UHGV virus genome: UHGV-0866312
Source of the DNA: a virus
Strand: one strand, 5' to 3'
Length of the DNA stretch: 56,697 nucleotides
Program-made: the position numbers and the translations under genes
In this document: positions 1 through 55,456 of the stretch, piece by piece
Layout of the letters: every line of letters begins with the position of its first letter
Position numbering within the stretch: the first letter of the stretch is position 1
Notes under the pieces: generated by a model
Database searches by the model: none
Seen by the model: the letters and a program-made list of their open reading frames with translations, nothing else
Told to the model about the DNA's origin: nothing

Positions 1-33
1 TACCTATTGTAAGACCTAAAAAATATTTGAGGG

Positions 34-450
34 GTGAGGATAATGGCAAGACCTAAAAGAGATAAGCTGACAGCACAGCAAATGGAGTGCATACAATTAC
101 TGATAATGAAAGATATTAACAAGATGAATAACAAAGATATAGCAGAGCATCTAGGTATCAATGAGACTACATTATATAGATGGTATCAGAATGATATGTT
201 TATAGATGAGTTAAACAAAGCTACTGAACAGATGCAAAGAGCATATCTAAATGAAACCTACTTACAGCTTAGAAAGGTAATGAGGAATGGCAATGATACC
301 AGCAAACTAAAAGCCATTGAATTGTTCTTGAAAAACCAAGGCAAGCTAAAGGAACAGCAAGAGACAAAGGTAGAAGTAAAGGTAACTACAGTAGATGACC
401 TAGCAAAGAAATATAATGTAGATATAGACCTAGACAGTGAAGAGGAATAA
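34..450 (+). CDS. terS: putative terminase small subunit (HTH DNA-binding)
   Basis: 138 aa. The N-terminus MARPKRDKLTAQQ..C.Q is typical of TerS, and there is an HTH (NKDIAEHLGINETTLYRWYQ). A pac-like repeat region follows. It is separated from terL by cargo genes. Confidence 0.5.
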   Translation: MRIMARPKRDKLTAQQMECIQLLIMKDINKMNNKDIAEHLGINETTLYRWYQNDMFIDELNKATEQMQRAYLNETYLQLRKVMRNGNDTSKLKAIELFLKNQGKLKEQQETKVEVKVTTVDDLAKKYNVDIDLDSEEE

Positions 451-468
451 AAAGCCTCTTCTTTTTTT
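439..468 (+). terminator. rho-independent terminator (gaagagg-loop-cctcttc + T7)
   Basis: 7-bp perfect stem followed by TTTTTTT directly after the terS stop. Confidence 0.7.
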
Positions 469-531
469 GTCCATTATAATACCCCTTTTAGGAAACAGTA
501 TAATTATTCATGAATTTAAGCAAATATTCAC

Positions 532-726
532 AGCAAGGGTACAGGGTGGGGGCTAGGGGGTATCTGACCAAAAAAACCATGAATATAAAATATCTATGTC
601 AGAAATAACATCCAATAGCAGTGAGGTATCAGTGAGGGTACAGTGAGGTATCAGTGAGGTATCAGCAAGAGTGCTACATTATCTGTTATTACAGTAAGGG
701 TACTGGGGGTACTACTGGGATTGACC
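532..726. repeat. pac/cos-like non-coding structure: two related G-rich boxes (532-571, 691-726) flanking 4 tandem 11-bp repeats cagtgaggtat (619-662)
   Basis: Direct reading. AAGGGTACAGGGTGGGGGCTAGGGGGTATCTGACC and AAGGGTACTGGGGGTACTACTGGGATTGACC, plus cagtgaggtat/cagtgagggta/cagtgaggtat/cagtgaggtat. The G-runs are atypical for this AT-rich genome. Confidence 0.6.
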
Positions 727-1024
727 TTTTATTAAAAGTTAAAACAGCCCACAAAAAATTACATACTGAAAATATGCTGTGAAACAGTGTAACTCTTTTA
801 TAACTCTATAGCAGTCTATTATAGCTGTTTAAATTCAGAGTAAACAAATTATACCTAGAACACACAAAGTCTACTCACAGAGGCACACAGAGAGTTATAG
901 GGCTATTCTAGCAGTCATTAAATGCTGTGGCTGGTGCTGGGCTGGGGCATTCATATTATCTGCTATAACTTCTTTTATTTTATATTTTCTTTATACAAAA
1001 TATCTGTAGTTATATATCTAATAC

Positions 1025-1065
1025 AGGTAAAAATATTGACCTAAAGATAATAACTATATATAACT
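1025..1065 (+). promoter_or_regulatory. near-consensus sigma-A-type promoter (TTGACC-N17-TATAAC); copy 1 of a 41-bp exact repeat
   Basis: -35 TTGACC at 1036-1041, a 17-nt spacer, -10 TATAAC at 1059-1064, and an A-rich upstream stretch. The identical 41 bp recurs at 30464-30504. Confidence 0.65.
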
Positions 1066-1150
1066 TATATTTCTTTGAAATATCTTTATATAACAGTATA
1101 TATACAGAGAATATAAGAGTAATAATGTTATTAAAATTTTTGCTAGTCTT

Positions 1151-1200
1151 TTGTCACAATAATACCCCAGTAGGTATATATTATACTATAAAGATTAAGG
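1151..1200 (+). promoter_or_regulatory. TTGTCACA element + dyad ATACCCCagtaGGTAT + TATAAAGATTAAGG box (class 1 recurring intergenic cassette)
   Basis: Motif shared with 14 other intergenic sites (see findings). Confidence 0.55.
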
Positions 1201-1239
1201 CAGTTAAGATGACTGCTAGTAGTAAGGGGTGTTTGTTTA

Positions 1240-2133
1240 ATGGCAAAAATAATAAGAGGATTTAATTTCAGTGATATTGAGGCTTTTGTTGAGGGGTGCT
1301 ATTTCCTTTGTACTAGTGACTATGGCAACTTTGTTGAGGGCAATATATATGAGGGTGTTTTAGATTTAAACCCTAACACTATTTATCCTTTCTATGTTTT
1401 TGAGGATGATGATGTAGATGAGGCAATGTGGACTGATGCTAGATACTTTGAATTAATCCACAGACCTATTACAGAGGATGACTTAGTAGATGGAATGGTA
1501 TTTAAGGGTTATGGCTTATCTAATAAAGAGTATGTCTTAAATATTGTAGATGGCACTTATTTAATTACTGGTAAAGAGTATGGCACTACTTACTGTGACT
1601 ATAGCACAGTAGCAAGGACATTAAATGCTATGAATAATGTTACTGTATTACCACATCTAACAGTACCACAATATGGCTTTGTACCACTAGGAGTACCAGA
1701 GGCTACAGATGAGCCAGATGATTTAGAATTACCATTACCTAGTTTGTGGGCTGATGATGTTAATTTAGATTTAGGGGCTATTTTAGTCTTTGGTAAAGAT
1801 GGTGAGACATACAAAAATGCTGATTTAGAATTAACAATAACTGATAATGCTATTGTGCTTAATAAGGCTATAGCTGAAATACCTACAAAGGGCTGGCACT
1901 TAGTTACAAAAGAAAAGGTAACTTTAATTACTATTGAGCATAAGCCAAATGGTAAAGGCTATGTATTCAGATTAGCAGATAAGCTAAATAACAGCCCTAT
2001 AGCAGTAGGTAACATTGTAGTTAAAAATGATGTACAAGGTAGAGGCTATGCCAAAGTGCTAAAAGTAGAAGTAGTAGAAATGACAAAAGAAGAGAAAGCA
2101 GAATATAAAGAAATAATTGACATAGTAGATTAA
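1240..2133 (+). CDS. hypothetical protein (297 aa, acidic)
   Basis: Long ORF with an RBS-like AAGGGG upstream. No recognisable motifs. Confidence 0.55.
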   Translation: MAKIIRGFNFSDIEAFVEGCYFLCTSDYGNFVEGNIYEGVLDLNPNTIYPFYVFEDDDVDEAMWTDARYFELIHRPITEDDLVDGMVFKGYGLSNKEYVLNIVDGTYLITGKEYGTTYCDYSTVARTLNAMNNVTVLPHLTVPQYGFVPLGVPEATDEPDDLELPLPSLWADDVNLDLGAILVFGKDGETYKNADLELTITDNAIVLNKAIAEIPTKGWHLVTKEKVTLITIEHKPNGKGYVFRLADKLNNSPIAVGNIVVKNDVQGRGYAKVLKVEVVEMTKEEKAEYKEIIDIVD

Positions 2134-2173
2134 TAGCTGTGGGGCTGGCTGTAGCCCCTGTACATAAAATGGT

Positions 2174-2431
2174 GTGGCTACCATAAAAGCTGAAAGGGTT
2201 TATAGTATGAGTAAAAAATTAAAATTCTACCTAGTAGAGAGGAATGATAGATGCAGTTATGATGAGTTTGATAGCTGTGTAATAACTGCTGACAATGAAG
2301 AAACTGCAAAGGAATTAGCTTATACACTTAATAATAGGTGGCATAAATCTTTTACACCAGAGACAGTAAAAGTAACTGAAATAAAAGCAGTAGAAAATAA
2401 AATAATTCTAGCTAGTTATAATGCTGGTTAA
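2174..2431 (+). CDS. hypothetical small protein (probable start at 2207, MSKKLKF)
   Basis: ORF. Its leader ataaaagctgaaagggttta is identical to the leader of the gene at 55557. Confidence 0.45.
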   Translation: MATIKAERVYSMSKKLKFYLVERNDRCSYDEFDSCVITADNEETAKELAYTLNNRWHKSFTPETVKVTEIKAVENKIILASYNAG

Positions 2432-2445
2432 TAGGGGGTGGGGTT

Positions 2446-2640
2446 ATGGTTAAAGCTAGATATTTTTATGATGATACTTTTTGTTTTAATTTTGATGATG
2501 TTGAAACATTTCAAGATTACTATGACAATATTTTAGCTACTGATGATAATTTAATGGTGCTAGAGTTTGATGGTAACAAGAAACCTAGTGACCCTGTGCC
2601 AGTCAAATTAACAGTTATTAAGGGTGGTCAAAATGATTAA
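2446..2640 (+). CDS. hypothetical small acidic protein (64 aa)
   Basis: ORF with a GGGGTGGGG RBS. Confidence 0.4.
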   Translation: MVKARYFYDDTFCFNFDDVETFQDYYDNILATDDNLMVLEFDGNKKPSDPVPVKLTVIKGGQND

Positions 2641-3151
2641 TGAAATTTGGAAAGATATTGTAGGCTATGAGGGGCTTTATAAAATAAGCAACTTAGGTAA
2701 TATAAAAAGCCTTAACTATAAGAGGACTGGAAAAGCACAGAATTTGTCATTAAGCAAAAATAGGGCTGGTTACTACCATGTATTTCTATATAAAGATAGA
2801 AAAGGTGTAGACTTTGATATACACTGGCTGGTGGCATATCACTTTATAAGTTTTATTCCACAGGTAGGAATTAAATATCATGTAAACCATAAAGATGAAA
2901 ATAAACTTAATAATAGTTTAAGTAATTTAGAAATAATATTAATGCAAGAAAATTTTAATTATGGTACAGCTAGGCAAAGGTCAGCACTGGCACAGAGTAT
3001 ACCAGTGATTTGTATAGAGACTGGTGTGGTTTACTCATCAGCTAGTGAGGCTAGTAGGCAGACTGGTGCAAGGCAAGAAACTATAAATAGGTGCTGTAAG
3101 GGTAAAGCAAAAACATCTAATGGCTATCATTGGAGGTATGCAAATGAATGA
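2633..3151 (+). CDS. HNH homing endonuclease (NUMOD4-like N-terminus + HNH)
   Basis: N-terminal MINEIWKDIVGYEGLYKISNLGNIKS and the NHKDENKLNN motif. Clear paralog of 41896-42414. The ATG at 2633 overlaps the upstream stop. Confidence 0.8.
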   Translation: MINEIWKDIVGYEGLYKISNLGNIKSLNYKRTGKAQNLSLSKNRAGYYHVFLYKDRKGVDFDIHWLVAYHFISFIPQVGIKYHVNHKDENKLNNSLSNLEIILMQENFNYGTARQRSALAQSIPVICIETGVVYSSASEASRQTGARQETINRCCKGKAKTSNGYHWRYANE

Positions 3152-3503
3152 GGATATTGTAGCTAGAATGACCAATTTAGAGGGTAAAATTTGGCTTTAT
3201 AGTATCATCTATTATAGATTAGGTAGCAGTATTGTTACTGATAAAAAATATGATGATATTAGTAAGGAAATGAAGAGGCTAAAAGAGGAATACCCAGAGG
3301 AATTTAAAGCTAGTAAGCATTATGATGTATTTAAAGATTTTGAGTGGCAAAGTGGCTACTATCTACCTTTATATGATATACACATGACTGCTGTAGCAGA
3401 GTTTGTATTAATGGTTAATAATAAAGGTATGGAGGCTTACAAAGACCATGTAGGTAGAGAGCCTATTAAAATAAAAGGAAAAAGAAGAAGAAAGAGAGGG
3501 TAG
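3144..3503 (+). CDS. hypothetical protein, basic C-terminus (KGKRRRKRG)
   Basis: ORF whose start (ATGAATGA) overlaps the HNH stop, suggesting translational coupling. Confidence 0.45.
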   Translation: MNEDIVARMTNLEGKIWLYSIIYYRLGSSIVTDKKYDDISKEMKRLKEEYPEEFKASKHYDVFKDFEWQSGYYLPLYDIHMTAVAEFVLMVNNKGMEAYKDHVGREPIKIKGKRRRKRG

Positions 3504-3523
3504 TAGAAATACTACTCTTTTTT
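3500..3523 (+). terminator. rho-independent terminator
   Basis: ggtagtagaaatactactc followed by TTTTTT. Confidence 0.65.
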
Positions 3524-3594
3524 AATAGTTTTTTGTCACAGATATACCCCACTGGGCATATACTTATAGTATAAAACAAAAAGGGGTGTAATTT

Positions 3595-4479
3595 ATGATA
3601 GTTACAATAGGGAAAAGCAATAGAAAGAGTGATATAAAAGACTTAACAAAGAAAAGAAAGGCTGTGAATTTACCAAAGTCTACAAAGGAATTTGAAAAGC
3701 TAATAGGGCAAGCAGAATACAGCACAAAGAAATACTTAGATAGAAGTAAATTAACTGATAAAGAGTTAATGGCTGTAGATGCTTATGAGAATATCACCAG
3801 CTTTGGTAGTGATGTAGCTGACTGCTTTGAGGACTTATTAGAAGAGTTAGGCAGAATACCTACACAAGAGGAATATGTAAATAGAGGTGTGGAATTAACT
3901 AGCATGTGGTGGTGTGAGGCTATATTAAAGCATGATAATAGGGTACTGGGTATTAACTTTGAGGGTGCTGTAGTGGATGCCTGTAAAGATAGATTAGGCA
4001 GAGGCTACATTAGTATGGTCAATGAATTACACACAAAGCTATTGTTAAAAGAGATTTACCCAAAGGCTAAAGTAATATCACATGACTTACTAGATTTATT
4101 ACTAGGTGTAGATATTGTTTTAGAGTTAGATAAGAAAAGATATTATATTCACATCTTTAAAGATAGTCATTATGGTGTGCAAGCTTTTTACAATAAAGAG
4201 CAAAGAGGTGGCATTAATAAAGATGGTAAGTTTATCAAGTATCAAAGAGACTTTACAGGTGATGTAAGGCTACAATATTTAAGCAGAGATACTAACAGTG
4301 ATAAATGTAAATTCATAAATGGTATGCCAGTGTTTACAAGGGAATGGCTAGAGGGGTACTTATTTATGGTCACTAGGAGCAGTAAATTTGGTGAGAGATT
4401 AGATGCAGAGGATAGCAAGCTGGATAAGTTAAAGGCTTTTGTATTTGATAACTTTGGTCAAAGAGTAGAATTTAAGTAA
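3595..4479 (+). CDS. hypothetical protein (294 aa); possible PD-(D/E)XK-like nuclease motif GVDIVLELDKK
   Basis: ORF preceded by a class 1 GTCACA cassette. The motif assignment is weak. Confidence 0.45.
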   Translation: MIVTIGKSNRKSDIKDLTKKRKAVNLPKSTKEFEKLIGQAEYSTKKYLDRSKLTDKELMAVDAYENITSFGSDVADCFEDLLEELGRIPTQEEYVNRGVELTSMWWCEAILKHDNRVLGINFEGAVVDACKDRLGRGYISMVNELHTKLLLKEIYPKAKVISHDLLDLLLGVDIVLELDKKRYYIHIFKDSHYGVQAFYNKEQRGGINKDGKFIKYQRDFTGDVRLQYLSRDTNSDKCKFINGMPVFTREWLEGYLFMVTRSSKFGERLDAEDSKLDKLKAFVFDNFGQRVEFK

Positions 4480-4559
4480 TTAATTATATGATGGTGTCTA
4501 CTAAATGGTTATATTAGTGGACACTATCAGCATTATAGAGTATGATAGAGGTAGGATTT

Positions 4560-5438
4560 ATGAGTAAGAAAATATTACATTTATTCCAATGGAAATTAAC
4601 AGATATTATTACAGTATTACCAAAGGTAAAAGAGCAAGGCTTTGATGCTATACAAGTATCACCATTGCAAGGTACTAAAGATGCTGGATATGAGTGGTGG
4701 AAATTATACCAGCCCACAAATTTTAAAATAGGTAATTCACAGGTAGGCAGTAGGGATGACCTTATTAAACTTTGTGGCAAAGCACATAACTTAGGTATAG
4801 AGGTTTATGTAGATGTAGTATTAAGGCATGTAGCTGGTGATGATTACCACCATTTAGTACCACATGATACTGTAGATGCAGACATTAAGCCAGAATATTA
4901 TTACTGCTTTGATGAATGTAATGACTACAATAATAGATATGAATATACACATAAATGTACTGGGATGCCTATGCTAAATTATTTTAGTCATGATGTACAA
5001 GATATGTATATTAATTACTTAGATGACCTTGTTTGCTGTGGTGTGGATGGCTTTAGATTAGACCAGCTAAAACACTATGCCTTACCTGTAGAGGGCTGTG
5101 ATTTCCTACCTAGAGTATTTGGTAGATACACTGATAAATATATCTATGGTGAAATTATATTCAGTGATAAGGTGCTGTTAAATGCATATTCAAAATATAT
5201 GAATGTACTAACAGAGGGTAGCTGTGATAATAAAGATAGGCTGGTTACTTTTGTAGAAAGCCATGACAGCTATTTAGAGTTTGGATATACAAAGAATATG
5301 AGTAATGAAATGTTATTAATGGAATATGACCACCTAGTAAATGAATGTGATTTTAATACATTATTCTATGCTAGACCATTTAATAATTTATGGTTATCAA
5401 GTGAAATTAAAAAGATAAATTTGAAAGGATGTATTTAG
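4560..5438 (+). CDS. GH13 alpha-amylase family catalytic-domain protein
   Basis: Conserved GH13 regions: DVVLRH (region I), GFRLDQLKH (region II), GEII (region III), FVESHD (region IV). The N-terminus has the AIQVSPLQ barrel start. There is no domain C. Confidence 0.7.
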   Translation: MSKKILHLFQWKLTDIITVLPKVKEQGFDAIQVSPLQGTKDAGYEWWKLYQPTNFKIGNSQVGSRDDLIKLCGKAHNLGIEVYVDVVLRHVAGDDYHHLVPHDTVDADIKPEYYYCFDECNDYNNRYEYTHKCTGMPMLNYFSHDVQDMYINYLDDLVCCGVDGFRLDQLKHYALPVEGCDFLPRVFGRYTDKYIYGEIIFSDKVLLNAYSKYMNVLTEGSCDNKDRLVTFVESHDSYLEFGYTKNMSNEMLLMEYDHLVNECDFNTLFYARPFNNLWLSSEIKKINLKGCI

Positions 5439-5439
5439 A

Positions 5440-6030
5440 ATGAATAAGGCTTATATGAGATTATCACAAAAGGACAGCATTAAAAATGGCAATGGCTTTG
5501 ACAGGCAAAAGCATTTATTAAAGGATATAGAAATAGATACATGGTATCAAGATGTTATTAGTGGTGCTAAAAGAAATAGACCACAGCTAGATAAGATGCT
5601 GGAAGAGTTAGAGGCTGGGGATATTGTTTATATACCAGCTATTGACAGGTTATCAAGAAGTACAAAAGACCTTTTAGAAATTGTAGAGATAATTAAAAAT
5701 AAGGGTGCTTACTTAGTTAGCATTAATGATACATGGTTAGATACAAGGGCTAGTAACCCTATGTCAGATTTCCTTTTGACTGTTATGGGGGCTATGGCAC
5801 AGCTAGAGAGGGATATGATAGCTAAAAGAATTAAGCAAGGTGTAGAAAATGCTATAGAGCAAGGCAAGGTTATAGGCAGACCACCAGTAAACAGTGACAG
5901 AGTATTAGAGGCTGTCAAGATGTATAAAGAGACTGGTAAGAGCATGAGGGAAATAGAGGCTATTACAGGGGTCAGTAAATCAGCAATATCAAAAGCATTA
6001 AAGAAAAATAAGACAATTTCAGAGCAGTAA
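5440..6030 (+). CDS. small serine recombinase (resolvase/invertase family) with C-terminal HTH
   Basis: YMRLSQKDS with a catalytic Ser context, DRLSRS, and the C-terminal HTH SMREIEAITGVSKSAISKAL. 196 aa. Confidence 0.7.
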   Translation: MNKAYMRLSQKDSIKNGNGFDRQKHLLKDIEIDTWYQDVISGAKRNRPQLDKMLEELEAGDIVYIPAIDRLSRSTKDLLEIVEIIKNKGAYLVSINDTWLDTRASNPMSDFLLTVMGAMAQLERDMIAKRIKQGVENAIEQGKVIGRPPVNSDRVLEAVKMYKETGKSMREIEAITGVSKSAISKALKKNKTISEQ

Positions 6031-6035
6031 ATAAA

Positions 6036-6066
6036 GGGGGTAGCTTTAATAGCTACTCTTTTTTTG
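6036..6066 (+). terminator. rho-independent terminator followed by class 2 element TTGTGCCTATTAGG
   Basis: gggggtagctttaatagctactc followed by TTTTTTT. Confidence 0.65.
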
Positions 6067-6098
6067 TGCCTATTAGGTGTAAGCTAGGAGGTGCAAAA

Positions 6099-7826
6099 AT
6101 GAGCAGAAAACATGAGATTGAGAAAAAGTTAAAACAGATAGAAATGGTTAGGGATAGCATTTTAGCTGAAATAAATAAGGGTAGGACAAAGAAAGCCAGA
6201 AAGCAGAGACTACAGGATTATGCAGAGGACTTAAATGCTATTGAAAGAGAATACAGAAAGACTAGAAGTGAGATAGATGTATTATTCTTTGCTTATGAGT
6301 ATTTCAGTGATGAGAGAAACCCAGACAATGACAATAACTTAATACCACTGGGTGCTACCTTTGAAAATGCCCCAGCTATTCATAGAGAATTATGTACCAT
6401 GCTGGATGCTATTACCTTTGAAGAGCATGACAGTAAAATAGGCTGGTCAGTACCCAGAGGACATGCAAAGTCTACTTATGTATCTAATATCTATCCTATA
6501 CACTGCTGTATTTTTGAGGGTGATACACCACATGGTAGAAAGTATATATTAATCCTTTCAGAGACAGAGGATTTAAGTAAGAAATTTATTGAGTATATCA
6601 AAGACCAATTAAAGCATAATCAAAAGCTTAGAGAGGACTTTGGGGAATTATTAAGTACAAAGAAATTTGAAAATGAAAAGGATAATAGTGGTGAATTTAT
6701 CACTACAAAAGGTACTTTGGTTAGGGCTGGGTCAATTGGTAAAGCTTTAAGGGGTGCTAGAAATAAAGCATACAGACCAGACCTAGTAATATGTGATGAC
6801 CTTGAAAGTATGGAAAATACAAACACACCAGAGTTAAGAGAGAAAAATTTATTCTGGTTTAATTCAGTAGTATCACCAGTAGGTGAAAAAGGCAGAACAG
6901 CATTTCTTTATGTTGGTACTATGGTGCATGGTCAAGGGCTATTACCAGACATATTAAGCAGAATTGATTATAAGAGTAAGATTTATTCAGCTATTGTAGA
7001 GTACCCAGAGGAAACAGACTTATGGCAAAAATATGAGGATATTTTAAGTGATAAGACTGACCCAGATAGAGAGGATAAAGCAGATGCTTTTTACTTTGAG
7101 CATAAAGAGGAAATGGACAAAGGCTGTAAAACACTTTGGTCAGAAAGATGGACTTACAGAGAGTTAATTAAAGAGAAAGTAAAAATAGGTAGTAGGGCTT
7201 TCAGTAGTGAGTATTTAAATTTAGCTAGTGATAAGGAAAGTATGATTTTCCATGATGGTATTTTTACTTACTTTGATGAGCCAGATTTATATGACCAAAA
7301 TGGTAGACCTAGACCTATGGACATTTATGGCTTTTGGGATTTAGCTATTAAGGATAAGAAAAGAAGTGACTTTAATGCCATTGTAATTGTAGGTAGAGAT
7401 AGAATTACAGGGGTAATGTATGTGCTGGATGCATGGAGTGGTAAAGTGCCAGTACACAAAGCATTAGAGCATTGTATAAAAATGATTGAGCAATGGAAAC
7501 CAAAGATACTAGGTGTAGAAACAATACAGGCACAATATGAGTTATACAGACAGCTACAAGAAAAGTTATTCAAGCTGGGTATTTACTATACAAGATTAAA
7601 GCCAGTAAACCCAAAGGCTAAAAAAGAGGAAAGAATTGAGGTACTAGAGCCTTTATTTGAGACTGGTTTTTTAAGAATTAAAAGGACACAAAGAATGTTA
7701 ATAGAGCAGTTAGAACAATTCCCAAATGGTGACCATGATGACCTACCAGATGCTTTAGCATCAGCAGTAGACATAGCTGGGAAACAAAGAAAAAGAAGTC
7801 ACTACAATAAACCTAAAGGACTATAG
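6099..7826 (+). CDS. terL: terminase large subunit
   Basis: Walker A-like VPRGHAKST, a C-terminal nuclease-like acidic region, and a position before the portal gene. The start at ATG 6099 follows a TAGGAGGTG RBS. Confidence 0.85.
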   Translation: MSRKHEIEKKLKQIEMVRDSILAEINKGRTKKARKQRLQDYAEDLNAIEREYRKTRSEIDVLFFAYEYFSDERNPDNDNNLIPLGATFENAPAIHRELCTMLDAITFEEHDSKIGWSVPRGHAKSTYVSNIYPIHCCIFEGDTPHGRKYILILSETEDLSKKFIEYIKDQLKHNQKLREDFGELLSTKKFENEKDNSGEFITTKGTLVRAGSIGKALRGARNKAYRPDLVICDDLESMENTNTPELREKNLFWFNSVVSPVGEKGRTAFLYVGTMVHGQGLLPDILSRIDYKSKIYSAIVEYPEETDLWQKYEDILSDKTDPDREDKADAFYFEHKEEMDKGCKTLWSERWTYRELIKEKVKIGSRAFSSEYLNLASDKESMIFHDGIFTYFDEPDLYDQNGRPRPMDIYGFWDLAIKDKKRSDFNAIVIVGRDRITGVMYVLDAWSGKVPVHKALEHCIKMIEQWKPKILGVETIQAQYELYRQLQEKLFKLGIYYTRLKPVNPKAKKEERIEVLEPLFETGFLRIKRTQRMLIEQLEQFPNGDHDDLPDALASAVDIAGKQRKRSHYNKPKGL

Positions 7827-7841
7827 AAAGGGGGTAATTAT

Positions 7842-9386
7842 ATGTATTATTGTACACAAGGGATAAGCTTTAAAAAGGGTGAGCAATTCCCTTTTAAAAG
7901 TCACTATCCTAGAATTGAAAGATATAGGGAAAATATGAAACTATTCAAAGGTGAGCATTATGATATATTCAGAAAATATAATGTAAAAGCCTTTAATGAT
8001 ATTTACATTGCAGTCAATTTAGCTGGTTTAATTTGCAAAAAGAGTGCTGATTTATTACTAGGGGAAGAGCCTATAATTAGTGCTGGTAAAGAGGATAATA
8101 GTAATGAGCAATTAGCTATAGATAGATTTACAGATAGCAATTACATGGACATTGTAAATTATGAGAGTGCTTTGTTTAATGCTGTCAAGGGTGATAGCTT
8201 TTATAGAGTTAGATATGGTCAAGAAAATGGTGGCATCTTTACTGATGAGGAATATAGAGTATTTATTGAGGGCATAGCACCAGACCATGTATTTCCAGAG
8301 GTATCACCATTAAATAAAAAGCAGATTGTAGTATATCATTACTGTGTACCATCTTATGATGAGAATACAGAAAGCTGGTCATTAATTTGTGAAAGTCATG
8401 GGGCTGGATATGTGCTTTACCATAGCTATGATTTAAAGCCTATACAAGTAAATGTATTAGGTGAGGTAGAAAAGTTTACTATAGGTGATATGATTGATGA
8501 GCCTAAATATACCTTGACAGGGGTTAATAAACCATTAATTGTACACATTCCTAACATGGCTAGTGGTGATAACTGGGAGGGGCTAGATGACCTATCTGAA
8601 AATAAAGGGCTATTTGATGAATTAAATAACAGGCTATCACAAATAGCATCTATCTTAGATAAGCATAGTGACCCAGCACTAGCAGTACCTACAGGATTAT
8701 TACAAGAGGATGAGAATGGTAATACTAAATTTAGGGTAGCTGTAGATAAGGTTTTTGAGGTGCTAGGTAAAGATGATATTATACCACAATACATTACATG
8801 GAATGGTAACTTACAAGAGGCTATTACTGAAATGAAAGAGGTAGTAAATTTAATCTTAATGAATAGTGAAATACCAGCTATAGCACTAGGCTTATCAGAT
8901 ACAGGTACTAGTGGTAGTAGTGGATTATCCATTAAATTCAGAATGAATAGTTTACTATCTAAGATTAAGAGAAAAAGATTATATTACAAGAAAGGATTAA
9001 AACAGGTATACACTGTAGCACAAGAATTAGAGACAGCTTTGGGAATTGCTAATTATGATGTAGTAAACCCACACATTAAGTTTAATGATGGCTTACCTAC
9101 TGATGACTTACAAGATGCTAACATTATGAATGTAAGAACAGGTGGAGCAGTTACAATGTCTCAAAAGACTGCTATTATGAGACTTGACAATATGACAGAG
9201 GAACAAGCAGAGGCAGAATTAAAGAGAATTGAAGAGGAACAGAAAGCAACTGCTAACACCTTTGGTACACCAGATATATTTAACCTTGAAGATGAGGGGC
9301 AAGATGGTGAGGGTGTAGACCCTAGCTTAACTGCTGTTAATGAAGAGGCTAACCAAAATAGTAAAGTACAAGATGCTGAAAATTAA
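7842..9386 (+). CDS. portal protein
   Basis: 514 aa, immediately downstream of terL, with an acidic C-terminus. Confidence 0.7.
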   Translation: MYYCTQGISFKKGEQFPFKSHYPRIERYRENMKLFKGEHYDIFRKYNVKAFNDIYIAVNLAGLICKKSADLLLGEEPIISAGKEDNSNEQLAIDRFTDSNYMDIVNYESALFNAVKGDSFYRVRYGQENGGIFTDEEYRVFIEGIAPDHVFPEVSPLNKKQIVVYHYCVPSYDENTESWSLICESHGAGYVLYHSYDLKPIQVNVLGEVEKFTIGDMIDEPKYTLTGVNKPLIVHIPNMASGDNWEGLDDLSENKGLFDELNNRLSQIASILDKHSDPALAVPTGLLQEDENGNTKFRVAVDKVFEVLGKDDIIPQYITWNGNLQEAITEMKEVVNLILMNSEIPAIALGLSDTGTSGSSGLSIKFRMNSLLSKIKRKRLYYKKGLKQVYTVAQELETALGIANYDVVNPHIKFNDGLPTDDLQDANIMNVRTGGAVTMSQKTAIMRLDNMTEEQAEAELKRIEEEQKATANTFGTPDIFNLEDEGQDGEGVDPSLTAVNEEANQNSKVQDAEN

Positions 9387-17761: not shown

Positions 17762-20671
17762 ATGGCTGGAATTGGAGAAATTAAAGCTAAGATTTCTATA
17801 GATTTAAGTGGCTTAAAGAAAGGACTACAAGAAGTAGGTAGCAGTATAGCTAGTGCTACAAACAATATTAAGGGTATGACTACTACACTTAATCAAGTAG
17901 AAACTAGAGCAGAGCATACAGGTACTAGCATTAGAGGTATTGGTGATGATGCTAATACAGGTGCTAATAATACTAGGTCAGCATTAAGTAGGATAGAAAC
18001 TGCTTTTGGTGGCATTAAGTCAGCTTGTAGCAATGCTGGTACAAAGATTAAAGAGACTTTTAAGAGCAGTCAAAAGTCTATTAAGGAATTTACTGATAAG
18101 CTGGATGAGACTGGTGATAAGCTTAGTGAGTTAGGTGATAGCATAACCCCTATAACTACTGCATTAGCTGGCTTTGCTATTGCTGGTGTAGGTGCTAGTG
18201 AGAATATAGATAATGCATTAAAGAATGTAAATACACAATTAGGGCTTACAGGTGATAATGCTGATGCATTAAAAGAGAATATCAGCAATGTAGCTAAGAC
18301 AGGTGTAGGTGGCTTTGATGAGGTAGCTGAAAGCCTAGTTATTGTTAAAAAGAATTTCAAGGACTTAGATGGTAAAGAGTTAGAAGATATGACCATTAAG
18401 GCTATGCATTTAGCTGATGTTACTGGGTCAGATGTAAATGAGACAATGAGAACAGCATCACAGTTAGCTAATAACTTTGGTATATCTGGTGATAAGGCAA
18501 TGGACTTAATCACTAAAGGCTTTCAAAATGGCTTAAATAATGCTGATGACTTTAATGACACCATTAAGGAATATTCACAGGATTTTAAGGGGCTAGGATT
18601 TACCAGTGAGGAATTTTTCAGCATCCTTGATAATGGCTTAAAAAATGGTGCTATGAATACTGATGTAGTAGCTGATGCATGGAGAGAATTTGGTATTAAA
18701 GTTAGAGAGGGAGAGGACACAGTAGGGGAGGCATTTAAGACTGCTGGTGTCAACTACAATGATTTTATTACTGAATTTAATAAGGGTGGAGAAAGTAGCC
18801 AGCAAGCAATACAAGGACTTGTAGAGAAAGTAATGGCTATTGAAGACCCTATTAAAAGACAGCAAACAGCAGTAGCTATCTGGGGTACTAAAGTTGAGGA
18901 TATGGGATTAGGTGTTATTGATGTATTTGATGGTGTAGGTAATAAATATGATGATGTTGCTGGTAGTGCTGAAAAGTTAGCTAAAGATAATGAAAGCTTT
19001 ACACAAAGGATGCAAGGTGCATGGAATACATTACAAGAGGCTATTAAGCCTGTAGGTGATGTAATTAAAAACATGATAGCTGGTGCTGTAGAGGCTATAG
19101 TACCAATAGTAGAAAAGCTGGGTACTGCTTTTGCTAACCTACCAGCACCTATACAAAATGCTATTGTAATTATTGGTGGTGTCATTGCTGGTATAGCCCC
19201 TGTATTACTGGGTGTAGCTGGTGGTGTTAAGTTATTTAGTGGTGTACTAAAAACATTATCACCTGTTATCAGTGGTATAAAGGCTGGCTTTACTGGATTA
19301 GCTACAGCTATAGGTGGAATTTCAGCACCAGTATTAGCAGTAGTAGCAGTCATAGCAGTATTAGTAGGTGCTTTTATATATGCATGGAATAATGTTGATG
19401 GCTTTAAAGAGGGTGTCATAAATGCATGGAATGTCATTAAGGATGCTGTCACAACTGCTGTACAGGCTGTGTGGTCAACTATTCAAGATGTTTGGTCAGC
19501 TATAAAGCCTTATGTAATGGACACTTTTAACTCTATAAAGGAAATAATATCATCAGTATTTACTACTGTGGTAACTGTAGTAACTACTGTAGTAACTGCT
19601 GTATGGAATGTAATACAAACTGTGTGGGGCTTAATTCAGCCTTATATAACAACTATCTTTACTGGTGTATTCACTGTAATTAGTGGTATCTGGCAAACTA
19701 TTTCTAGTTTTATTTCTGGGATAATGAATGTCATCAAAGATATTTTTACAGGTAACTGGGATGCTATTGGTGGTCACATTAAAGAGGCTTGTAGTGGTAT
19801 CTGGGAGGGCATACAAACTATCTGGGATGGTATTAAAACTTACTTATCTGGTATGATGGGTGCTTTAGGTGATTTAATAAAAGCTGGATGGCAAGTAGTT
19901 AAATCAGTTACAACAAGTATCTTAAATGTTGTTAAATCAGTAATTAGTAGTATTTGGAATAGTATTAAATCAGTAATTAGCAATGTCTTAAATGCTATTA
20001 AGTCAGTGATAAGCAGTGTGTGGAATGGTATTAAGTCTACTATCACAAGCATTTTAAATGGTATTAAGTCTACAGCATCTAGTATATGGAATGGTATTAA
20101 GTCTACTATTAGCAGTATAGTAAATGGTATCAGCAGTACAGTATCTAGTGTATTCAATGGCATTAAGTCTACTGCTACATCTATCTGGAATGGTATTAAA
20201 TCAGCTATTACCAGCCCTATAGAAAGTGCAAAAAGTACAGTATTAGGCATTGTAGATAATATTAAAAGTGCTTTTAATAACATGAAAATCAGCATACCAA
20301 AGCCTAAATTACCACATATCAGTGTAGGTAGTAAATCATTCTTAGGTGGTAAGGTGTCTATACCTACATTCTCTATTGACTGGTATAAAACTGGTGGTAT
20401 AGCTACTGGTGCTAGTGTAGTAGGTGTAGGTGAGAAAGGTGATGAGGCTATAGTACCTTTGAGTGATAAGCATAGAATGAAACCTTTTGCAAGTGCTGTA
20501 GCTGATATGATACAAGAGCATGATGGTGGTAATGATGGTGATGGTGGCAAAGTTGAAAATAACTTTAATATAAGCAGTTTGGTAGTAAGGGAAGAGGCTG
20601 ACATAGATAGAATAGCAGAAAAATTAGAAACCCTACAAAGGAGAGAAAAGAGAAAAAGGGGGTTAAAGTAA
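17762..20671 (+). CDS. tail tape measure protein
   Basis: About 970 aa, Gly/Ala/Ser-rich with TM-like stretches and about 9 tandem 11-aa repeats (WNGIKSxISSI). AGGAGGTG RBS before ATG 17762. Confidence 0.85.
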   Translation: MAGIGEIKAKISIDLSGLKKGLQEVGSSIASATNNIKGMTTTLNQVETRAEHTGTSIRGIGDDANTGANNTRSALSRIETAFGGIKSACSNAGTKIKETFKSSQKSIKEFTDKLDETGDKLSELGDSITPITTALAGFAIAGVGASENIDNALKNVNTQLGLTGDNADALKENISNVAKTGVGGFDEVAESLVIVKKNFKDLDGKELEDMTIKAMHLADVTGSDVNETMRTASQLANNFGISGDKAMDLITKGFQNGLNNADDFNDTIKEYSQDFKGLGFTSEEFFSILDNGLKNGAMNTDVVADAWREFGIKVREGEDTVGEAFKTAGVNYNDFITEFNKGGESSQQAIQGLVEKVMAIEDPIKRQQTAVAIWGTKVEDMGLGVIDVFDGVGNKYDDVAGSAEKLAKDNESFTQRMQGAWNTLQEAIKPVGDVIKNMIAGAVEAIVPIVEKLGTAFANLPAPIQNAIVIIGGVIAGIAPVLLGVAGGVKLFSGVLKTLSPVISGIKAGFTGLATAIGGISAPVLAVVAVIAVLVGAFIYAWNNVDGFKEGVINAWNVIKDAVTTAVQAVWSTIQDVWSAIKPYVMDTFNSIKEIISSVFTTVVTVVTTVVTAVWNVIQTVWGLIQPYITTIFTGVFTVISGIWQTISSFISGIMNVIKDIFTGNWDAIGGHIKEACSGIWEGIQTIWDGIKTYLSGMMGALGDLIKAGWQVVKSVTTSILNVVKSVISSIWNSIKSVISNVLNAIKSVISSVWNGIKSTITSILNGIKSTASSIWNGIKSTISSIVNGISSTVSSVFNGIKSTATSIWNGIKSAITSPIESAKSTVLGIVDNIKSAFNNMKISIPKPKLPHISVGSKSFLGGKVSIPTFSIDWYKTGGIATGASVVGVGEKGDEAIVPLSDKHRMKPFASAVADMIQEHDGGNDGDGGKVENNFNISSLVVREEADIDRIAEKLETLQRREKRKRGLK
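19900..20215 (+). repeat. 33-bp (11-aa) tandem repeats within the tape measure gene
   Basis: Repeating ...IKSVISSIWNSIKSVISNVLNAIKSVISSVWNGIKST... Confidence 0.7.
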
Positions 20672-21573: not shown

Positions 21574-24500
21574 ATGTTTTATTTATATGAGGGTGGTGGA
21601 AATAAACCAAAATTATTAGGTGTCCTAGATACTGATGTAGATAGTACAGAAAGCTGTTTAGTATTGTCAGCAATAGCAAAGCACAAAGTAAATAGTATTT
21701 CTACTTTAGACATTGCTATACCAGCAGACCACAGCTTAAATAGCTTAATTACTGATACTACAGATATAGTATTCTTTGACACTTATGGTGAGCCACAAGA
21801 GTACCATATTACAGAGATTGAGGATATACATGATGATAGCCTAGACAGGTATTTATATTGTGAACATTCAGCAATAGAATTAAATGACAGTATCATTACA
21901 GAAACTATGAGCAATGCCAGCAGTGGTGACCCAGCAGACTATTTAGCATTTATCTTATCATTTACAAGATGGCAAGTAGGTACAGTGGATGAGGGTGTAT
22001 ATAACTCTAAGTGGAATGGTATAAATGACCTTGTAGGTAAAAATTGTATGGTAGCTTTGGGTGAGTTTATCAGCAAGTATAACTGTGAGGTATCTTATAG
22101 ATTTACTATTAAAGATAATGTTATTACTGGTAGATATGTTGATATTAAAAAGCAAGTAGGTAATGACTATGGTAAAAGATTTAGCTATGAAAAGGACATT
22201 AATTCATTAAAAAGGACTGTAGATGCTAGTGGTGTTAAAACTGCTATTTTCCCTAGAATTGCTGTAAATAATTCTAGTGAGGAAAGTGGAGAAAGTAGCA
22301 CATCATATATTACTATAGCTAATGTAACATGGAATACTGCAAATGGTAACCCAGTTAATAAGCCTTTAGGTGATGTTATCCTAGTTAATTCTGATATTTC
22401 CTATAAGTATCAAAGATTAGATAAAGCTACAGGTAAATTAATTCACAGGGTTATGTATGCAGAATGGACACAGGAAACTGCTACAGATGCAAATGATTTA
22501 ATTAATCAAGCATGGTTAATCCTAAGAGCAAACAGCACACCTAAAATAAACTATGAATGTAATGCCAGTGACTTATATTTATTGAGTGGTAAAGATGTTA
22601 ATTTATCACATGAGCATGTAAAGCTAGGTGACAGGGCTGTAATTCTTGATAAAGCTTTTAAACCAGAGATAAGAGTTAAGAGTAGAATAATGGAAATGAC
22701 AGAGGATTTATTAGACCCTACTGCTAATAATTTTGTTTTTGGTAATACAAAAGCTACTTTAAGTACATCTAGTGTAGACCAGCAACAAAGCTTAGAGGAA
22801 CAATTACACCAATTAGAGAACAAATTACCAGAGTACACATTACCTTTCCAAAATGGTAAGCCTTACTATGATGCTATCAAGCAAGAGTTAAAAGATGAAT
22901 TTGTTACATCTAGTGGCTATGTAATGATAGAGAATGATAATGGACTTTGGGTATTTGATAGACCAGCAGATTTACAACCTACAAAAGCTGTAATTGTTAA
23001 GGGTGGTAATATTGGTTTAGCTAAATGGAATACACAAACATCTAGCTGGGAATTAGGTACTTTTATTAATGGTACTAGTGTTAATGCTGACTTTATCACT
23101 ACAGGTCATTTAAGTGGTGATGTTATTGAGGGTCACAGCATCACAGCAGACCATTTAACTGTAGAGGCAATAGAATTTATTAAGACTGGTTTAGCTAGTG
23201 AGGATGACTTAAATAAGGCTGTAGAGGATATTACAAAGGTTAAGGATGATATTACTGGTATTAATAATGAAATTACTAATATTAATAAGACTATTGATGA
23301 GGCTATAAAAGGTACACTAGATGCTAGTAAATTGAATATCATTAATAATAACTTATTATTGTTAGATGCAGAGTATAACAATTTAATAGCTAGAGCAAAC
23401 AGTGTATATAATAATCAGTATTTAATAGGACAAAATAAGGTAGATTTAGACACAGCTAGAACAGCTTACAAAACTGCTTACACTGAATACACAACTTATG
23501 TAAATACTATTATTGCTGATAAGTTAGTAACTGATGCAGAATACACAGAATATGTACAAAAAACTACTACTTATAATACTGCTTTAGTGGCTATTAATAC
23601 TGCTATTGAAGATGCTAACACTGATATTATCAATAATGTATATGCACAAGCTAGACAGGGGCTAGTAACTACAGCAGATTTAGAGGTAAATAATCAAAGT
23701 GTAATTGCTAGTGCTAAGTTAGGTATGGTTAGTACAGGTGATATGACAGAGGCTATACAAATGGCTACAAAGGATTTAGTAGCTACTGGTGAATTACAAG
23801 AAATTATAGATAAGGCTACTAGTGATTTAACTACTACAGATGAATTAACAGCAGAAATTACAAAGGCTAAAATAGCATCAATACAAGAAACATTTAAGCC
23901 TATCACTACAGAGTATAAAGGGAATTTACAACAAGCAAATACCATTTATGCAAATGCTAATTTAACTGGTACAGCTAAGACAAATTTGAATACTGCTAAG
24001 ACTGATTACACAAGCAAGTATAATGCTTTAGCTACAGCTATCAAGAATATTGTAGATAATAATTCAATAGCAGAGACTTATATGACAGCTTATAATACTG
24101 CTTTAGCTAATTTACAAACAGCTACTACTACTTTAGGTCAAAGACTACAAGAGGCAATAGCAAGTATTAACAATGCTATTTACAGCAATGCTAAAAATTA
24201 TGCAGATGGATTAAAGACTACAATAGATGCCAGCATTAAAGATGTAGCAGATAGTGTAGGTGGATTAAGGGAAGAGGTTACCACTTCTTTTAAAGATGGT
24301 ATCATTTCACAAGCAGAGACAATAGCTTTACAAAAGCAAATAGATTTACTTACTAAGGAAAAGAATAGTATAGATACAGAGTTTACTACTGTTTATGAAA
24401 ATACTGACTTGACTGGTACACCTAAGACTGATTTAAATACTAAGAAAACTGCTTATAATACAGCACACACTAATTTAATAACAGCTATCAATACTGCTAT

Positions 24501-27500
24501 TAAAGATAATAGTATTACTAGTGATGAGAGCAATGATGTAAATGCTAAATTTACTGCATATTGTTCAGCTTTATGTGAGGTTAAATGTGCTTTACAAACT
24601 GCTATAGATGCCATTGCTGATGCTAAAAGTAATGGTGCTTATACTAATGCTAAAAAATATGCTGATGGATTAAAAACTACTACAGATAAAAGTATCAGTG
24701 ATGTTAATAGTGCTGTAGGTACTTTAAGAAAGGATGTAACTACTACTATTAAAGATGGCATAGTATCAGAGGCAGAGGCTTTAGCAATTAAGTCTAATAT
24801 TCAAGTATTAAACAGTGAGAAAGCTGATATTGATAAAGAATTTACTACTATCTATGCAAATGGTAATTTAACTGGTACAGCTAAAACAGACCTTAACAGT
24901 AAAAAGACAGCTTATAATACAGCACACACAAATTTAATAAATAGTATTAACAATGCTACTGCTGATGGTAAAGTAACTACTACTGAAAAGGCTGATATAG
25001 ATAGCAAGTTTACTGCTTATAGCACTGCTTTAGCTAACTATAAAGGTGCTTTACAAACTGCTATAGATAATATTGCTAGTAATAAAAGTAATACTGTTTA
25101 CACTAATGCTAAGAAGTATGCAGATGATTTAAAAACTGCTACAGACAAAAGCATAAGTGATGTTAATAGTGCTGTAGGTACTCTAAGGAAAGATGTTACT
25201 ACTAGTATTAAAGATGGTATTGTATCAAATGCAGAGGCATTGTCTATAAAGAGTAATATAGATGTTTTAAACATGGAGAAAGCTGATGTAGATAAGGAAT
25301 ACACTACTTTGTATGCTAATGCTAACTTGACTGGTACACCTAAAACAGAATTATCATCTAAGAAAACTGCTTATAATACAGCACATACAAATTTAATAAA
25401 TAGTATCAATAATGCTGTTAAAGATAATGTAGTTACTACTGCTGAAAAGACAGATATAAATAGTAAAATGACTGCTTATTCTACTGCTTTAGGTAACTAC
25501 AGGGTAGCTGTACAAAATGCTATTGATGCTATAGCTAGTAATAGGGCTAATAGTGCTGTAAATAATCTTATTGTAGGTGCAAGAAATTTAGCATTAAAGA
25601 CTAGTAATGACTGGGTATCATTTACTAACTTTACTGGTATAACTAATGACTGTAGAGGTGGTTATACTGTTTTAACTGATGGATTAAATGTAGGTGATAG
25701 CATCACTATTACCTTTGAGTATAAGTTAGAAAATATGACTTATTCTACTGCTGGTAATATAAGATTTTATCTACAAGGTAGTGGGGATGTTACAGCATGG
25801 AATAGTGGTAGTTTTCCATCATCACCAGTACCTAGTATGGTAGCTAATGCTACTGGTACAGTAAGCTACACAGCTAAAATAACTGCTGACCATTTAAAAA
25901 ATAGTAGCTGGGGTACAAACTTTAGAACAGATTACATTACTGGGGGTAAAATTTCAGTAAGAAGAGTAAGAGTTACAAAGGGTAATAAGCAAATTGACTG
26001 GACACCAGCACCAGAGGACACTACAAGTGCTATTAACAATGCTGTAAAAGATTTAGCTAGTCTAAATGATGTAACTACAGCCCAAAATAATGCAGTTATA
26101 AAAGCAAATATTGAGGCTATTAAACAGACTTATTCTGCTGTTAAGACTGAATATAACAATAACTTACAACAAGCCACAACAACTTACAATAACAGTTACC
26201 TAGCTGGTACTGCTAAAAGTTATCTTAATAGTGCTATTACTGGGTATAAAGAAAAATTTAGTGCTGTTACTACTGCTTACAATAATATTGTTACTGATAA
26301 TACACTATCATCTAGTGAGTTATCAGCATGGAATACAGCTATAACAAACTTACAAAGCTATACTACTACACTAGCTTTAAGATTATCAGAGGCTATAAAC
26401 TATATTAATACTGCTGTGTATAATGCTAGTAAAAAATATACTGATGAAACTATTCCAGATAAATTGACTGGATATGCTAAAACTAGCTATGTAGATGATG
26501 CAAAGGCACAAGCTATTAAAGATGCAAAAGCTGGCATGGTATCTACTAGTGATTTACAAGTAAATAATAGTGAGATACTAATGACTACATCTAAGATGGG
26601 TCAGTACAATATGCTTAAAAATACAGACTATAGAAATGGTACAGACCATTGGAGTAAATATAGTGTACCTAGTGGAGTAAACTGGGATATAGTAACTGAT
26701 ACTGATGCCTGTGTTATTGCTGGTGAAAAAGCTTTTAGAGTAGGCTTTACATCAAGCACAGCAAATAAATATGTAAGTTATGGTATGTCACAAACAGTAG
26801 CATTAAAGGCTGGTGTATCTTACACATTAAGCTACTGGTTAAATACTCTTAATGCTGAAGCAAGGGTTAGTATTTTTAACCCACCTTTTAGTAGTGAAAT
26901 AGCATCTAAGACATATGGTGCTACTAATGGTAACAACAAAAGGGAGACACACAAGTATGACAGCATAACATTTACACCTACTATATCTGGTAGCTATCAC
27001 ATTGTATTTACTATCAATAAGGCTATTAATGCTAGCTGGGCTGGTATATTTGTAACTAAGCCTATGCTATGTACTGGTATCAATGCACAAGCATGGACAG
27101 GTCACCCAGATGAGATATATGTAGGGGTAGTTAGTATTACAGAGGAACATGGTATTAAGGTAGAGCATAGTGATGCAAATACCTACAGTAGTTTAGATGC
27201 TACTGGCTTAAAGATTTGGGAATATAACAATGATAACCCTGTGGCATCTTTTGGTGATGGTAATACTGCTTATATAAGCACTGTTAATACAAAGAAATTA
27301 ATTGCTGATAATGTTACACCTACAATAACAGTAGATGGTAACTATTCTTATTACTTTAGCAATACTGGTAGTGGTGACTATTCTGGTAAAGATAGTAGTA
27401 ACTGCTGTGCTGGGTTTACAGGTGCTATGGCTAGAATGTGTGATGATTTTGGTATAGATAGGACACACACAAAGGGTAATTTTTTCATGCAAGGTAATGG

Positions 27501-30085: not shown

Positions 30086-30094
30086 TGATATAAG

Positions 30095-30121
30095 AGGGTA
30101 GCAGAAATGCTACTCTTTTTG
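30095..30121 (+). terminator. rho-independent terminator gggtagcagaaatgctactc+T (sequence reused at 41209 and 45026)
   Basis: Stem-loop followed by a T-run after the endolysin. Confidence 0.7.
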
Positions 30122-55414: not shown

Positions 55415-55456
55415 CAGAAAGGGGCTGATAAAAGCCCCAGTACATATTTTATAAAA

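Follow-up and report, generated by a model that had tools for sequence, protein, structure and literature searches.

Conserved G-rich boxes and tandem repeats beside terS form a putative packaging region in a gut phage genome

Packaging recognition sites beside the gene for the small terminase subunit (terS) and short terminal repeats are both well known already. T7-like packaging is the usual interpretation for phages whose terminal repeats are short (PMC9703825), and in the Halcyone cluster, to which we compare our locus most closely, terminal repeats of 377-378 bp have been defined by doubled coverage together with read pile-ups (PMC4706335; PMC6070908). Here we analyse the phage genome UHGV-0866312 (56,697 nt, 33% G+C; the whole of this 56.7-kb stretch is called the window below), in which a 790-nt gap free of open reading frames (ORFs), at 451-1239, separates terS (34/43-450) from the next gene (1240-2133). 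This gap holds two related G-rich boxes, a set of tandem 11-bp repeats between them and a third G-run further downstream. We interpret 531-726 together with 924-948 as a putative cis-acting region for DNA packaging in a temperate phage whose hosts are Clostridia-like gut bacteria, a proposal that we consider evenly balanced, and we think it somewhat probable, by analogy with characterised relatives, that the virion ends or the start of packaging lie in the gap.

The terS-terL interval and the ends of related phages

The large terminase (TerL) of the window is 59% identical to that of FA70 and FA67, 52% to that of PK2 and 45%, over 99% of its length, to those of the Halcyone-cluster phages, while the next tier of relatives, at ~30% identity, consists of Mu-like phages. 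Mu-like phages package by a headful mechanism. The small terminase (TerS) is likewise homologous between the window and the Halcyonevirus phages of Paenibacillus larvae (Tripp, Halcyone, Unity and others), belonging to the same Pfam family and sharing 25% identity with Tripp gp92 (E=6e-6). In the records of FA70/FA67, PK2 and the Halcyone cluster, the PF13022 terS comes last among the genes and terL stands near the left end (1.3-2 kb from it in Tripp and Halcyone), and the virion ends of Tripp and the Halcyone cluster fall in the ORF-poor interval between the two genes, an arrangement that the window resembles.

The 378-bp direct terminal repeat of Tripp, which is exact in the record, runs from +111 to +488 nt after the terS stop codon and ends at GGGAGCCCACCCCCAAGGGCCCCCATCGAGGGGCTGCGTC. 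The window elements occupy +81 to +498 and therefore match the position of the Tripp repeat between terS and terL. Positionally, the counterpart of the left part or interior of the Tripp repeat would be the boxes with the 11-bp repeats, and that of its right boundary the third G-run, a GC-rich box ~430-490 nt after terS being a feature of both phages. The two also differ: the terminal repeat has been measured in the Halcyonevirus phages and is only predicted in the window phage, Tripp is without an obvious GGGTAY array, 11-bp repeats or cargo island, and its genome has 48% G+C as against 33%, the DNA being unalignable. Among GenBank phages, no DNA-level relatives were found by megablast of 1-8000 or blastn of 440-1250.

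A first-pass annotation of this DNA had proposed a pac or cos site close to a packaged genome end. The place and the general function look right, but the pac/cos label suits the locus less well, as the characterised relatives carry direct terminal repeats. None of the TerL relatives with known ends is a cos phage, and no cosN-like dyad was noticed near the boxes, no dedicated search for one having been made; reiterated motifs beside terS, one hallmark of a pac-type headful site, are present. Within the gap we regard a terminal repeat as the most likely arrangement by analogy, ahead of a pac site, which in turn stands well ahead of a cos site.

The identification of the gene at 34-450 (plus strand) as terS, already made in the first-pass annotation, is borne out by its product, which has an N-terminal helix-turn-helix (HTH) domain and matches PF13022 at 87.9 bits (cut-off 27.9), three PHROG terS families (6e-14, 9e-11 and 1e-10) and, by sequence, PDB entry 2AO9 (E=2e-5). 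Its true start is probably the ATG at 43, yielding a product of 135 aa; the protein P0002 (135 aa, 100% identical to TerS) begins MARPK. In the AlphaFold model (mean predicted local distance difference test, pLDDT, 74), residues 14-52 form the HTH and residues 54-101 long helices, and the top and sole significant Foldseek matches of this model are all nine 2AO9 chains (probability 1.00; template-modelling score 0.57-0.62 on the target). 2AO9 is a putative nonameric TerS from a Bacillus cereus prophage (PMC7672466), and its source prophage, phBC6A51, also encodes a TerL 39.5% identical to that of the window. The predicted fold thus resembles that of a solved ring-forming TerS, and a ring state is predicted here from this homologue. 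The HTH region is near-invariant among TerS homologues, and the counterparts in Tripp, FA70, PK2 and the L040 clade all score above the PF13022 cut-off. The TerL of the window had no PDB sequence match.

Several boundaries in the available assemblies were considered as markers of physical ends. An independent contig that is 92% identical to the window, L001, reads across the junction from the window end to the window start, so the map is circular or concatemeric and the window boundary is uninformative on physical ends. The contig ends of relatives are scattered, which fits permutation and equally fits circular assembly under any packaging type. The record ends of FA67 and FA70 differ by 30 nt and are therefore arbitrary, and a GGGCTGCGT repeat flanking the Tripp terminal repeat was dropped, ~0.5 such matches being expected by chance on our own estimate. 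The PK2 record (OM112210.1) starts with a 44-G run (L027 1-52) and ends with GGGGGTACGGAGGGGGGGG (L028 3382-3400). Its assembly is broken by a poly-G artefact inside its own G-box, 193 nt after a terS-like gene annotated as a TetR regulator; this break is suggestive but not usable as an end marker.

Boxes and tandem repeats and their conservation beside terS

All of the elements lie on the plus strand. Box 1 (CAGCAAGGGTACAGGGTGGGGGCTAGGGGGTATCTGACC, 531-569) contains GGGTAC, GGGTGGGGGCTA and GGGGGTATC, ends in CTGACC and is directly followed by A-rich AATATAAAATATC, as it is in relatives. Box 2 (CAGTAAGGGTACTGGGGGTACTACTGGGATTGACC, 692-726) contains GGGTAC, GGGGGTAC and GGGATTGACC and ends in TTGACC. 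Between them stand four tandem 11-bp units, CAGTGAGGTAT, CAGTGAGGGTA, CAGTGAGGTAT and CAGTGAGGTAT (619-662, repeat family D1), and a degenerate fifth unit, CAGCAAGAGTG (663-673); Tandem Repeats Finder (TRF) reports the array at 619-665, with period 11, 4.3 copies and a score of 78, and a genome-wide search found the exact 11-mer in this array only. The third G-run, GCTGTGGCTGGTGCTGGGCTGGGGC, is at 924-948, or +474 to +498 nt from the terS stop. A 17-nt leader, ACAGYAAGGGTACWGGG, is common to both boxes, with exact copies at 530 and 691 and a copy with three mismatches at 629, inside the repeats, and AAGGGTAC occurs only twice in the 56.7 kb, both times in the boxes. The 11-bp units are themselves weak copies of the GGGTAY motif, and boxes and units together make up one motif family, (A/G)GGG(G)TA(C/T), which occurs 8-9 times on the same strand from 537 to 712. 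Two related G-rich boxes bracketing four 11-bp repeats had been pointed out before, with a further G-run at 925-948; both are present, and the general location of the boxes stands, with small coordinate offsets (the string quoted earlier for box 1 begins at 535 rather than 532, and that for box 2 at 696).

How far these features exceed chance depends on which of them is counted. At up to three mismatches, the leader has five matches where 0.58 are expected, a number reached in 0 of 100 shuffles. The whole genome has 2 clusters of three runs of at least three Gs, where a first-order Markov model predicts 2.3, and the densest 200-nt stretch holds eight G-runs here and seven elsewhere in the genome. 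G-richness in itself was rejected as evidence, the G-run counts lying within the range of the genome. What does stand above chance is the presence of two clusters 160 nt apart with a common leader, a common ...TGACC ending and conservation in relatives, of which the conservation carries most weight. The boxes are unique in the genome, which fits a single-copy packaging signal more than a general promoter. The sequence of box 1 also conforms to a G-quadruplex pattern (four runs of G3 or more, with N1-7), as not all of the boxes of relatives do.

Scans of IMG/VR, JGI metagenomes and GTDB genomes with a terS profile gave only 3, 3 and 4 loci; exact-pattern searches and a single-protein terS search of IMG/VR returned no match. 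TerS homologues ~50% identical to that of the window are encoded on contigs of 46-56 kb, of which at least some derive from human-gut metagenomes, in the order SprT-like gene, ~800-nt gap, terS, 650-1275-nt gap, small genes, resolvase, terL, portal. The separation of terS from terL by the site and a variable cargo island, which the first-pass annotation had remarked on, is therefore a conserved layout. Among nine relatives counted, GGGG(G/C)TA or GGGCTA occurs in 2-12 copies within 300 nt after the terS stop, as against 0.2-1.0 per 300 nt elsewhere, and the near relatives L004 and L005 differ by gained or lost single motif units. The relative that is 92% identical keeps the four 11-bp units, with substitutions, and has the third G-run lengthened to GGGCTGGGCTGGGGCATTGCTAGTGCCACCCCAC, a G-run/C-run palindrome; its gap is ~84-100% identical in 50-nt bins apart from indels of 13-19 nt, a divergence too small for differential conservation to be informative. 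Relatives at 92-99% identity derive from runs ERR13984608 and ERR13991072.

The box-repeat-box order extends to more distant phages. Box 1 aligns with distant triple-G-run boxes, for example at 15 of 18 positions with TGGGGGAGTGGGGGTATC of L024, and, as regards the 11-bp repeats, AGTGAGGGTA is also found 3' of terS in the distant L017/L023 clade. Within box 2, TACTGGGGGTACTA agrees with L016 at 13 of 14 positions and TGGGGGTACTACT with L012 at 12 of 13. A distant clade in metagenome-assembled genomes (MAGs) of Clostridia, with TerS 42-44% identical, has AGTGAGGGTATCC at the terS stop codon and then a triple-run box, GGGGGTACATGGGGGAGTGGGGGTATC, followed by CAAAAATATACAAC, closely like box 1 of the window. 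The Clostridium phages FA70 and FA67 carry a G-box followed by AATATACAAC, three and two copies respectively of an unrelated 18-bp repeat, and then GGAAGGGTACGGAAGGGGTAC, an order of box, A-rich stretch, tandem repeat and box. In the L040 clade (pig and human gut, TerL 63% identical), GAGGGGGCACCCAGGGGGGAGGGGGG, an A-rich stretch and 22-bp tandem repeats stand upstream of terS. The array had been described as lying just 3' of terS; a G-motif array is indeed tied to terS across the family, but this clade shows that it need not be on the 3' side. G-box and repeats thus stay with terS while the flanking DNA is unalignable.

A GC island after terS is similarly recurrent, occurring at matching distance in 10 lineages: a single island stands at +416 to +537 nt in seven gut lineages (for example CCCACCCCAAGGGGGACACCCCC in L010), at +424 in FA70, at +438 in FA67 and at +426 to +488 in Tripp. 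The third G-run of the window, at ~+475, corresponds in position both to this island and to the GC box that closes the Tripp repeat on its right.

These comparisons bear on the possibility that the elements have no function, being slippage repeats and compositional noise in a fast-evolving spacer. The G-run density within the genome range, the tolerance of the 13-19-nt gap indels between 92%-identical phages and the variable repeat copy number between FA67 and FA70 are all what such a spacer would give. Motif type, attachment to terS and the box-repeat-box order nevertheless persist where TerS and TerL are 25-60% identical and the flanks cannot be aligned, and we give the absence of function only a very small chance.

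Under the packaging reading, a ring-forming TerS would read the reiterated GGGTAY or GGGG(G/C)TA motifs, that is, the two boxes and the weaker 11-bp copies, and the bound TerS would place TerL to cut replicated concatemers in the gap. Virion DNA would then start with the cargo island and terL and finish with terS as its last gene. On the analogy of Tripp, its ends would most likely be a short direct terminal repeat of ~350-420 bp, beginning near 560, at about box 1, and finishing near 950, just beyond the third G-run, with the boxes and 11-bp repeats inside it or at its left edge.

A number of observations weigh against this interpretation. The packaging mode is uncertain, the TerL being just 45% identical to those of terminal-repeat phages and its deeper relatives being Mu-like. 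The GC box at the Tripp repeat end shares short strings and a similar distance with the gut-phage boxes, without significant alignment. The density of G-runs is by itself not significant, and L002 has a single copy of the G-motif. Helical phasing of the motifs is weak and not significant overall (P=0.085 in the window, 0.02 in L008 and none elsewhere), and phasing as a sign of DNA wrapping round a ring was accordingly dropped. A contig break within the 11-bp repeats, considered as a physical end, proved to be repeat-induced, with L001 and L051 overlapping by 24 nt. A second array lies upstream of terS: 12 plus-strand copies of C[AT]GATAA[TC] over ~250 nt (56432-56675, with 0 on the opposite strand), which adjoins position 1 when the map is drawn as a circle or concatemer. 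This array is stronger than that in the gap and could be the true, specificity-determining TerS site, in which case the conserved G-boxes could serve TerL or end formation; it may alternatively be an operator for a regulator. Relatives have other repeated words at the same site (TAATGTAAAAG, AGTAAATGA, TTAAATGACTG and CGTTAAATA), and the near-invariant TerS HTH fits the conserved G-motif slightly better than a lineage-specific array, a weak argument. Finally, CTGACC at the end of box 1 forms, with TAAAAT after 16 nt, a 9/12 match to the sigma-70 consensus, and box 2 ends in TTGACC.

The last of these points belongs to the alternative that the boxes and repeats are operator or activator sites flanking a promoter for the cargo and late genes, which we consider unlikely, if less so than the other alternatives discussed here; the regulators would be phage sigma-like or HTH proteins or the TerS-like protein itself. 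TTGACA adjoins the GC box in relatives and TTGAAA-N16-TATAAG follows the L024 box, a terminator upstream means that a new promoter is needed before 1240, and one source labels TerS homologues 'AcrR family transcriptional regulator'. Promoter-like sites in 1-1400 are nevertheless at the level of shuffles (7 against 7.0), the spacing between hexamers and boxes differs in geometry between clades, and a conserved TATATAACAGTATATA block by the first gene is a better promoter candidate. The absence of the boxes from the rest of the genome and the 2AO9-type TerS nature of the protein also speak against transcriptional control.

Layout of the gap and neighbouring genes

From left to right, the gap region contains a hairpin (439-468), the inverted G-motif ATACCCC (479-485), box 1, the A-rich stretch, the 11-bp repeats, box 2, a CA-rich stretch (857-893), the third G-run and an AT-rich block with TATATAAC repeats (~960-1200). 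The hairpin, on the plus strand, reads GAAGAGG-N9-CCTCTTC followed by seven Ts; it resembles an intrinsic terminator, overlaps the terS stop codon and was read from the sequence, a consensus terminator scan having missed it owing to a loop limit of 8 nt. Relatives have comparable sites of hairpin and T-run, many of them made from G-motif copies. An inverted repeat, I3 (451-476 and 1238-1263, 81% complementary), flanks the entire gap.

The length of the gap, its freedom from ORFs and its conserved position would also suit a structured non-coding RNA or an array of RNA-level protein-binding sites, and the GAG/GGU-rich 11-nt repeats are superficially like arrays for RNA-binding proteins. The gap has, on the other hand, no Rfam 15 match at the gathering threshold or at E<=1, and it folds no better than shuffles (z = +1.28 on the plus and +0.11 on the minus strand). 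Depending on lineage, the arrays stand before, inside or after the terS terminator, and this variable position argues for a role at the DNA level; to an RNA function we assign the faintest chance of all the alternatives. Neither tRNA genes nor Rfam families were found in the 56.7-kb genome.

Reading the 11-bp units and boxes as initiator iterons, with the AT-rich 960-1200 as an unwinding element, would make the gap a replication origin. Short same-strand repeats about one helical turn apart do lie beside a very AT-rich, repeat-rich stretch, and long AT-rich tracts occur in the same gap of relatives. The replication genes are elsewhere, however: those for an HTH_36 protein, a DnaC-like loader, a DnaB-like helicase, a primase and PolA are some 30 kb away (~30-35 kb), with initiator, loader and helicase at 30.9-33.7 kb, so that the array is linked to terS and not, as in an iteron origin, to an initiator gene with an AT-rich element. 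A separate ORF-free stretch at 30086-30590 lies directly upstream of the first four of these genes, has short tandem repeats of its own, lies in the lowest-GC 1-kb bin (27.5%) and is a better candidate for an origin or early control region. The motif also remains with terS when G-box and repeats switch side, and the counterpart interval in Tripp is a terminal repeat. Taken together, we find an origin in the gap quite improbable.

At the right edge of the gap, before the gene at 1240-2133, plus-strand repeats of the TATATAAC(A/T)GTATATA type (1050-1105) are the best-conserved gap stretch against most of the relatives compared (L002, L004, L007, L008 and L040), where they always stand directly 5' of the gene that opens the next coding stretch. 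We regard them as a candidate promoter (possibly late) or activator region, and they probably belong to the conserved gap with a function separate from that of the boxes. Four contigs from as many samples (L034, L035, L037 and L039) begin at one nucleotide, save that one of the four begins 2 nt earlier, and a fifth, L050, of another lineage, begins ~25 nt off that shared start, at the gap right edge; these starts are homologous to window ~1122-1147. The recurrent assembly break may reflect low-complexity DNA, a boundary between mosaic strains or a real discontinuity.

The cargo island (4.8 kb) between the gap and terL (6066-7826, plus strand, with an SPP1-type portal gene next) encodes an HNH/NUMOD4 homing endonuclease (2624-3151), a stand-alone NAD-ligase Ia protein (Nlig-Ia, 127 aa, 3120-3503) without the ligase catalytic domain, an amylase-like protein and, directly 5' of terL, a small serine recombinase (5440-6030, plus strand; Resolvase domain, PHROG 'DNA invertase' at 7e-53). 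Among relatives, homing-endonuclease genes (HNH/NUMOD4, I-HmuI-like and GIY-YIG) vary in place within the terS-terL-portal interval, as at L033 2846-3403, L044 5392-5940 and FA70 55296-56042, and L023 has a C5 methylase, an NgoFVII-like restriction enzyme and a Z1 protein there. Several clades keep the Nlig-Ia gene near terS, and in the L040 clade no other gene comes between the two.

The small serine recombinase occupies the same position, between gap and terL, in most gut relatives, and together with I3 around the whole gap it would allow the boxes to be recombination sites, either a res-like site or the borders of an invertible promoter segment. Ten contigs of one clade, and comparisons between lineages, show no inverted variants, and the boxes are direct rather than inverted repeats. 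Boxes are moreover present, in G/C-mixed form in Tripp, in phages without a small serine recombinase at this place: in PK2 the recombinase is of tyrosine type on the opposite strand, Tripp has no recombinase annotated at its left end, and ORF1 of FA70 and FA67 is an HTH protein. An invertible segment was rejected, there being no minus-strand homology within or between clades, and BLAST did not recover an apparent likeness of 905-950 to the reverse complement of the L010 GC box. Recombination sites are, in our view, very unlikely.

Elsewhere in the window, all substantial ORFs are on the plus strand and GC skew is positive over the whole genome. A large serine recombinase with Resolvase, Recombinase and zinc-ribbon domains is encoded at 53061-54602; by its domains it is a probable integrase, which would imply a temperate lifestyle, and the distant relative L023 lies within a 486-kb MAG scaffold. 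A 459-bp tandem repeat (2.6 copies, 77% match; 24369-25543) is found inside a 2315-aa ORF (21574-28521) for a putative giant tail or host-interaction protein, and arrays of 33- and 66-bp repeats (19899-20196) in a 989-aa ORF.

Implications and comparison with known packaging systems

The motif family and its link to PF13022 TerS are not described in the literature returned by our full-text searches, none of which was aimed at either. If our interpretation is correct, GGGTAY arrays and a GC island by a PF13022 terS would be a signature for the genome ends and packaging start of common uncultured gut phages, by which metagenomic phage genomes could be linearised correctly and the mode of packaging predicted, together with the potential for generalised transduction that follows from it; packaging-competent vectors could also be designed. 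It would further explain the build-up of homing endonucleases, restriction-modification genes and recombinases in the terS-terL interval, since the packaged chromosome would end there. The general principles of phage packaging would be unchanged by the finding.

A bolder and rather improbable extension is that box-repeat-box is a portable packaging cassette, moving with PF13022 terS on its 3' or 5' side, bounding a short terminal repeat and read through a strand-specific, G-quadruplex-like G-run structure. Its hosts may be phages of gut Clostridia, Clostridium tyrobutyricum, Bacillus and perhaps Paenibacillus, a wide and mostly uncultured group of Bacillota phages. Such recognition would presumably be akin to that proposed for herpesvirus pac1.

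Among the known systems, the pac region of SPP1/SF6 consists of pacL, pacC and pacR, which are bound by the ring-shaped small terminase G1P. The window resembles it in having reiterated boxes that flank a central segment, beside terS and with a predicted oligomeric HTH TerS, and also encodes an SPP1-type portal and a member of the gp7-like minor head protein family. SPP1 pac, however, is located at or within the 5' end of gene 1, starts headful packaging and has boxes that are not G-rich, and the window TerL is not SPP1-like, its nearest characterised relatives using terminal repeats. In P1, clusters of short motifs stand on both sides of the cut region, by or within the small-terminase gene (pacA), but these are TGATCA/G hexamers regulated by Dam methylation, packaging is headful and the proteins are not homologous.

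The concatemer junction of T7/T3 contains a 160-bp terminal repeat flanked by the short-repeat arrays SRL and SRR. A short terminal repeat bordered by reiterated 7-bp units and packaged from concatemers is close to the arrangement predicted here, whereas the terminases and gene order are unrelated and the T7 repeats differ in sequence, their role in T7 being itself only partly defined. In herpesviruses, whose terminase is of the same ATPase-nuclease lineage as that of phages, the pac1 and pac2 elements within the terminal repeats likewise have G- or C-runs flanking a T- or A-rich core; these are eukaryotic viruses without sequence homology to the window, and the quadruplex likeness of box 1 is a pattern match only. 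The Halcyonevirus phages share with the window a homologous TerS, the terS-terL layout and the distance of the GC-rich box from terS.

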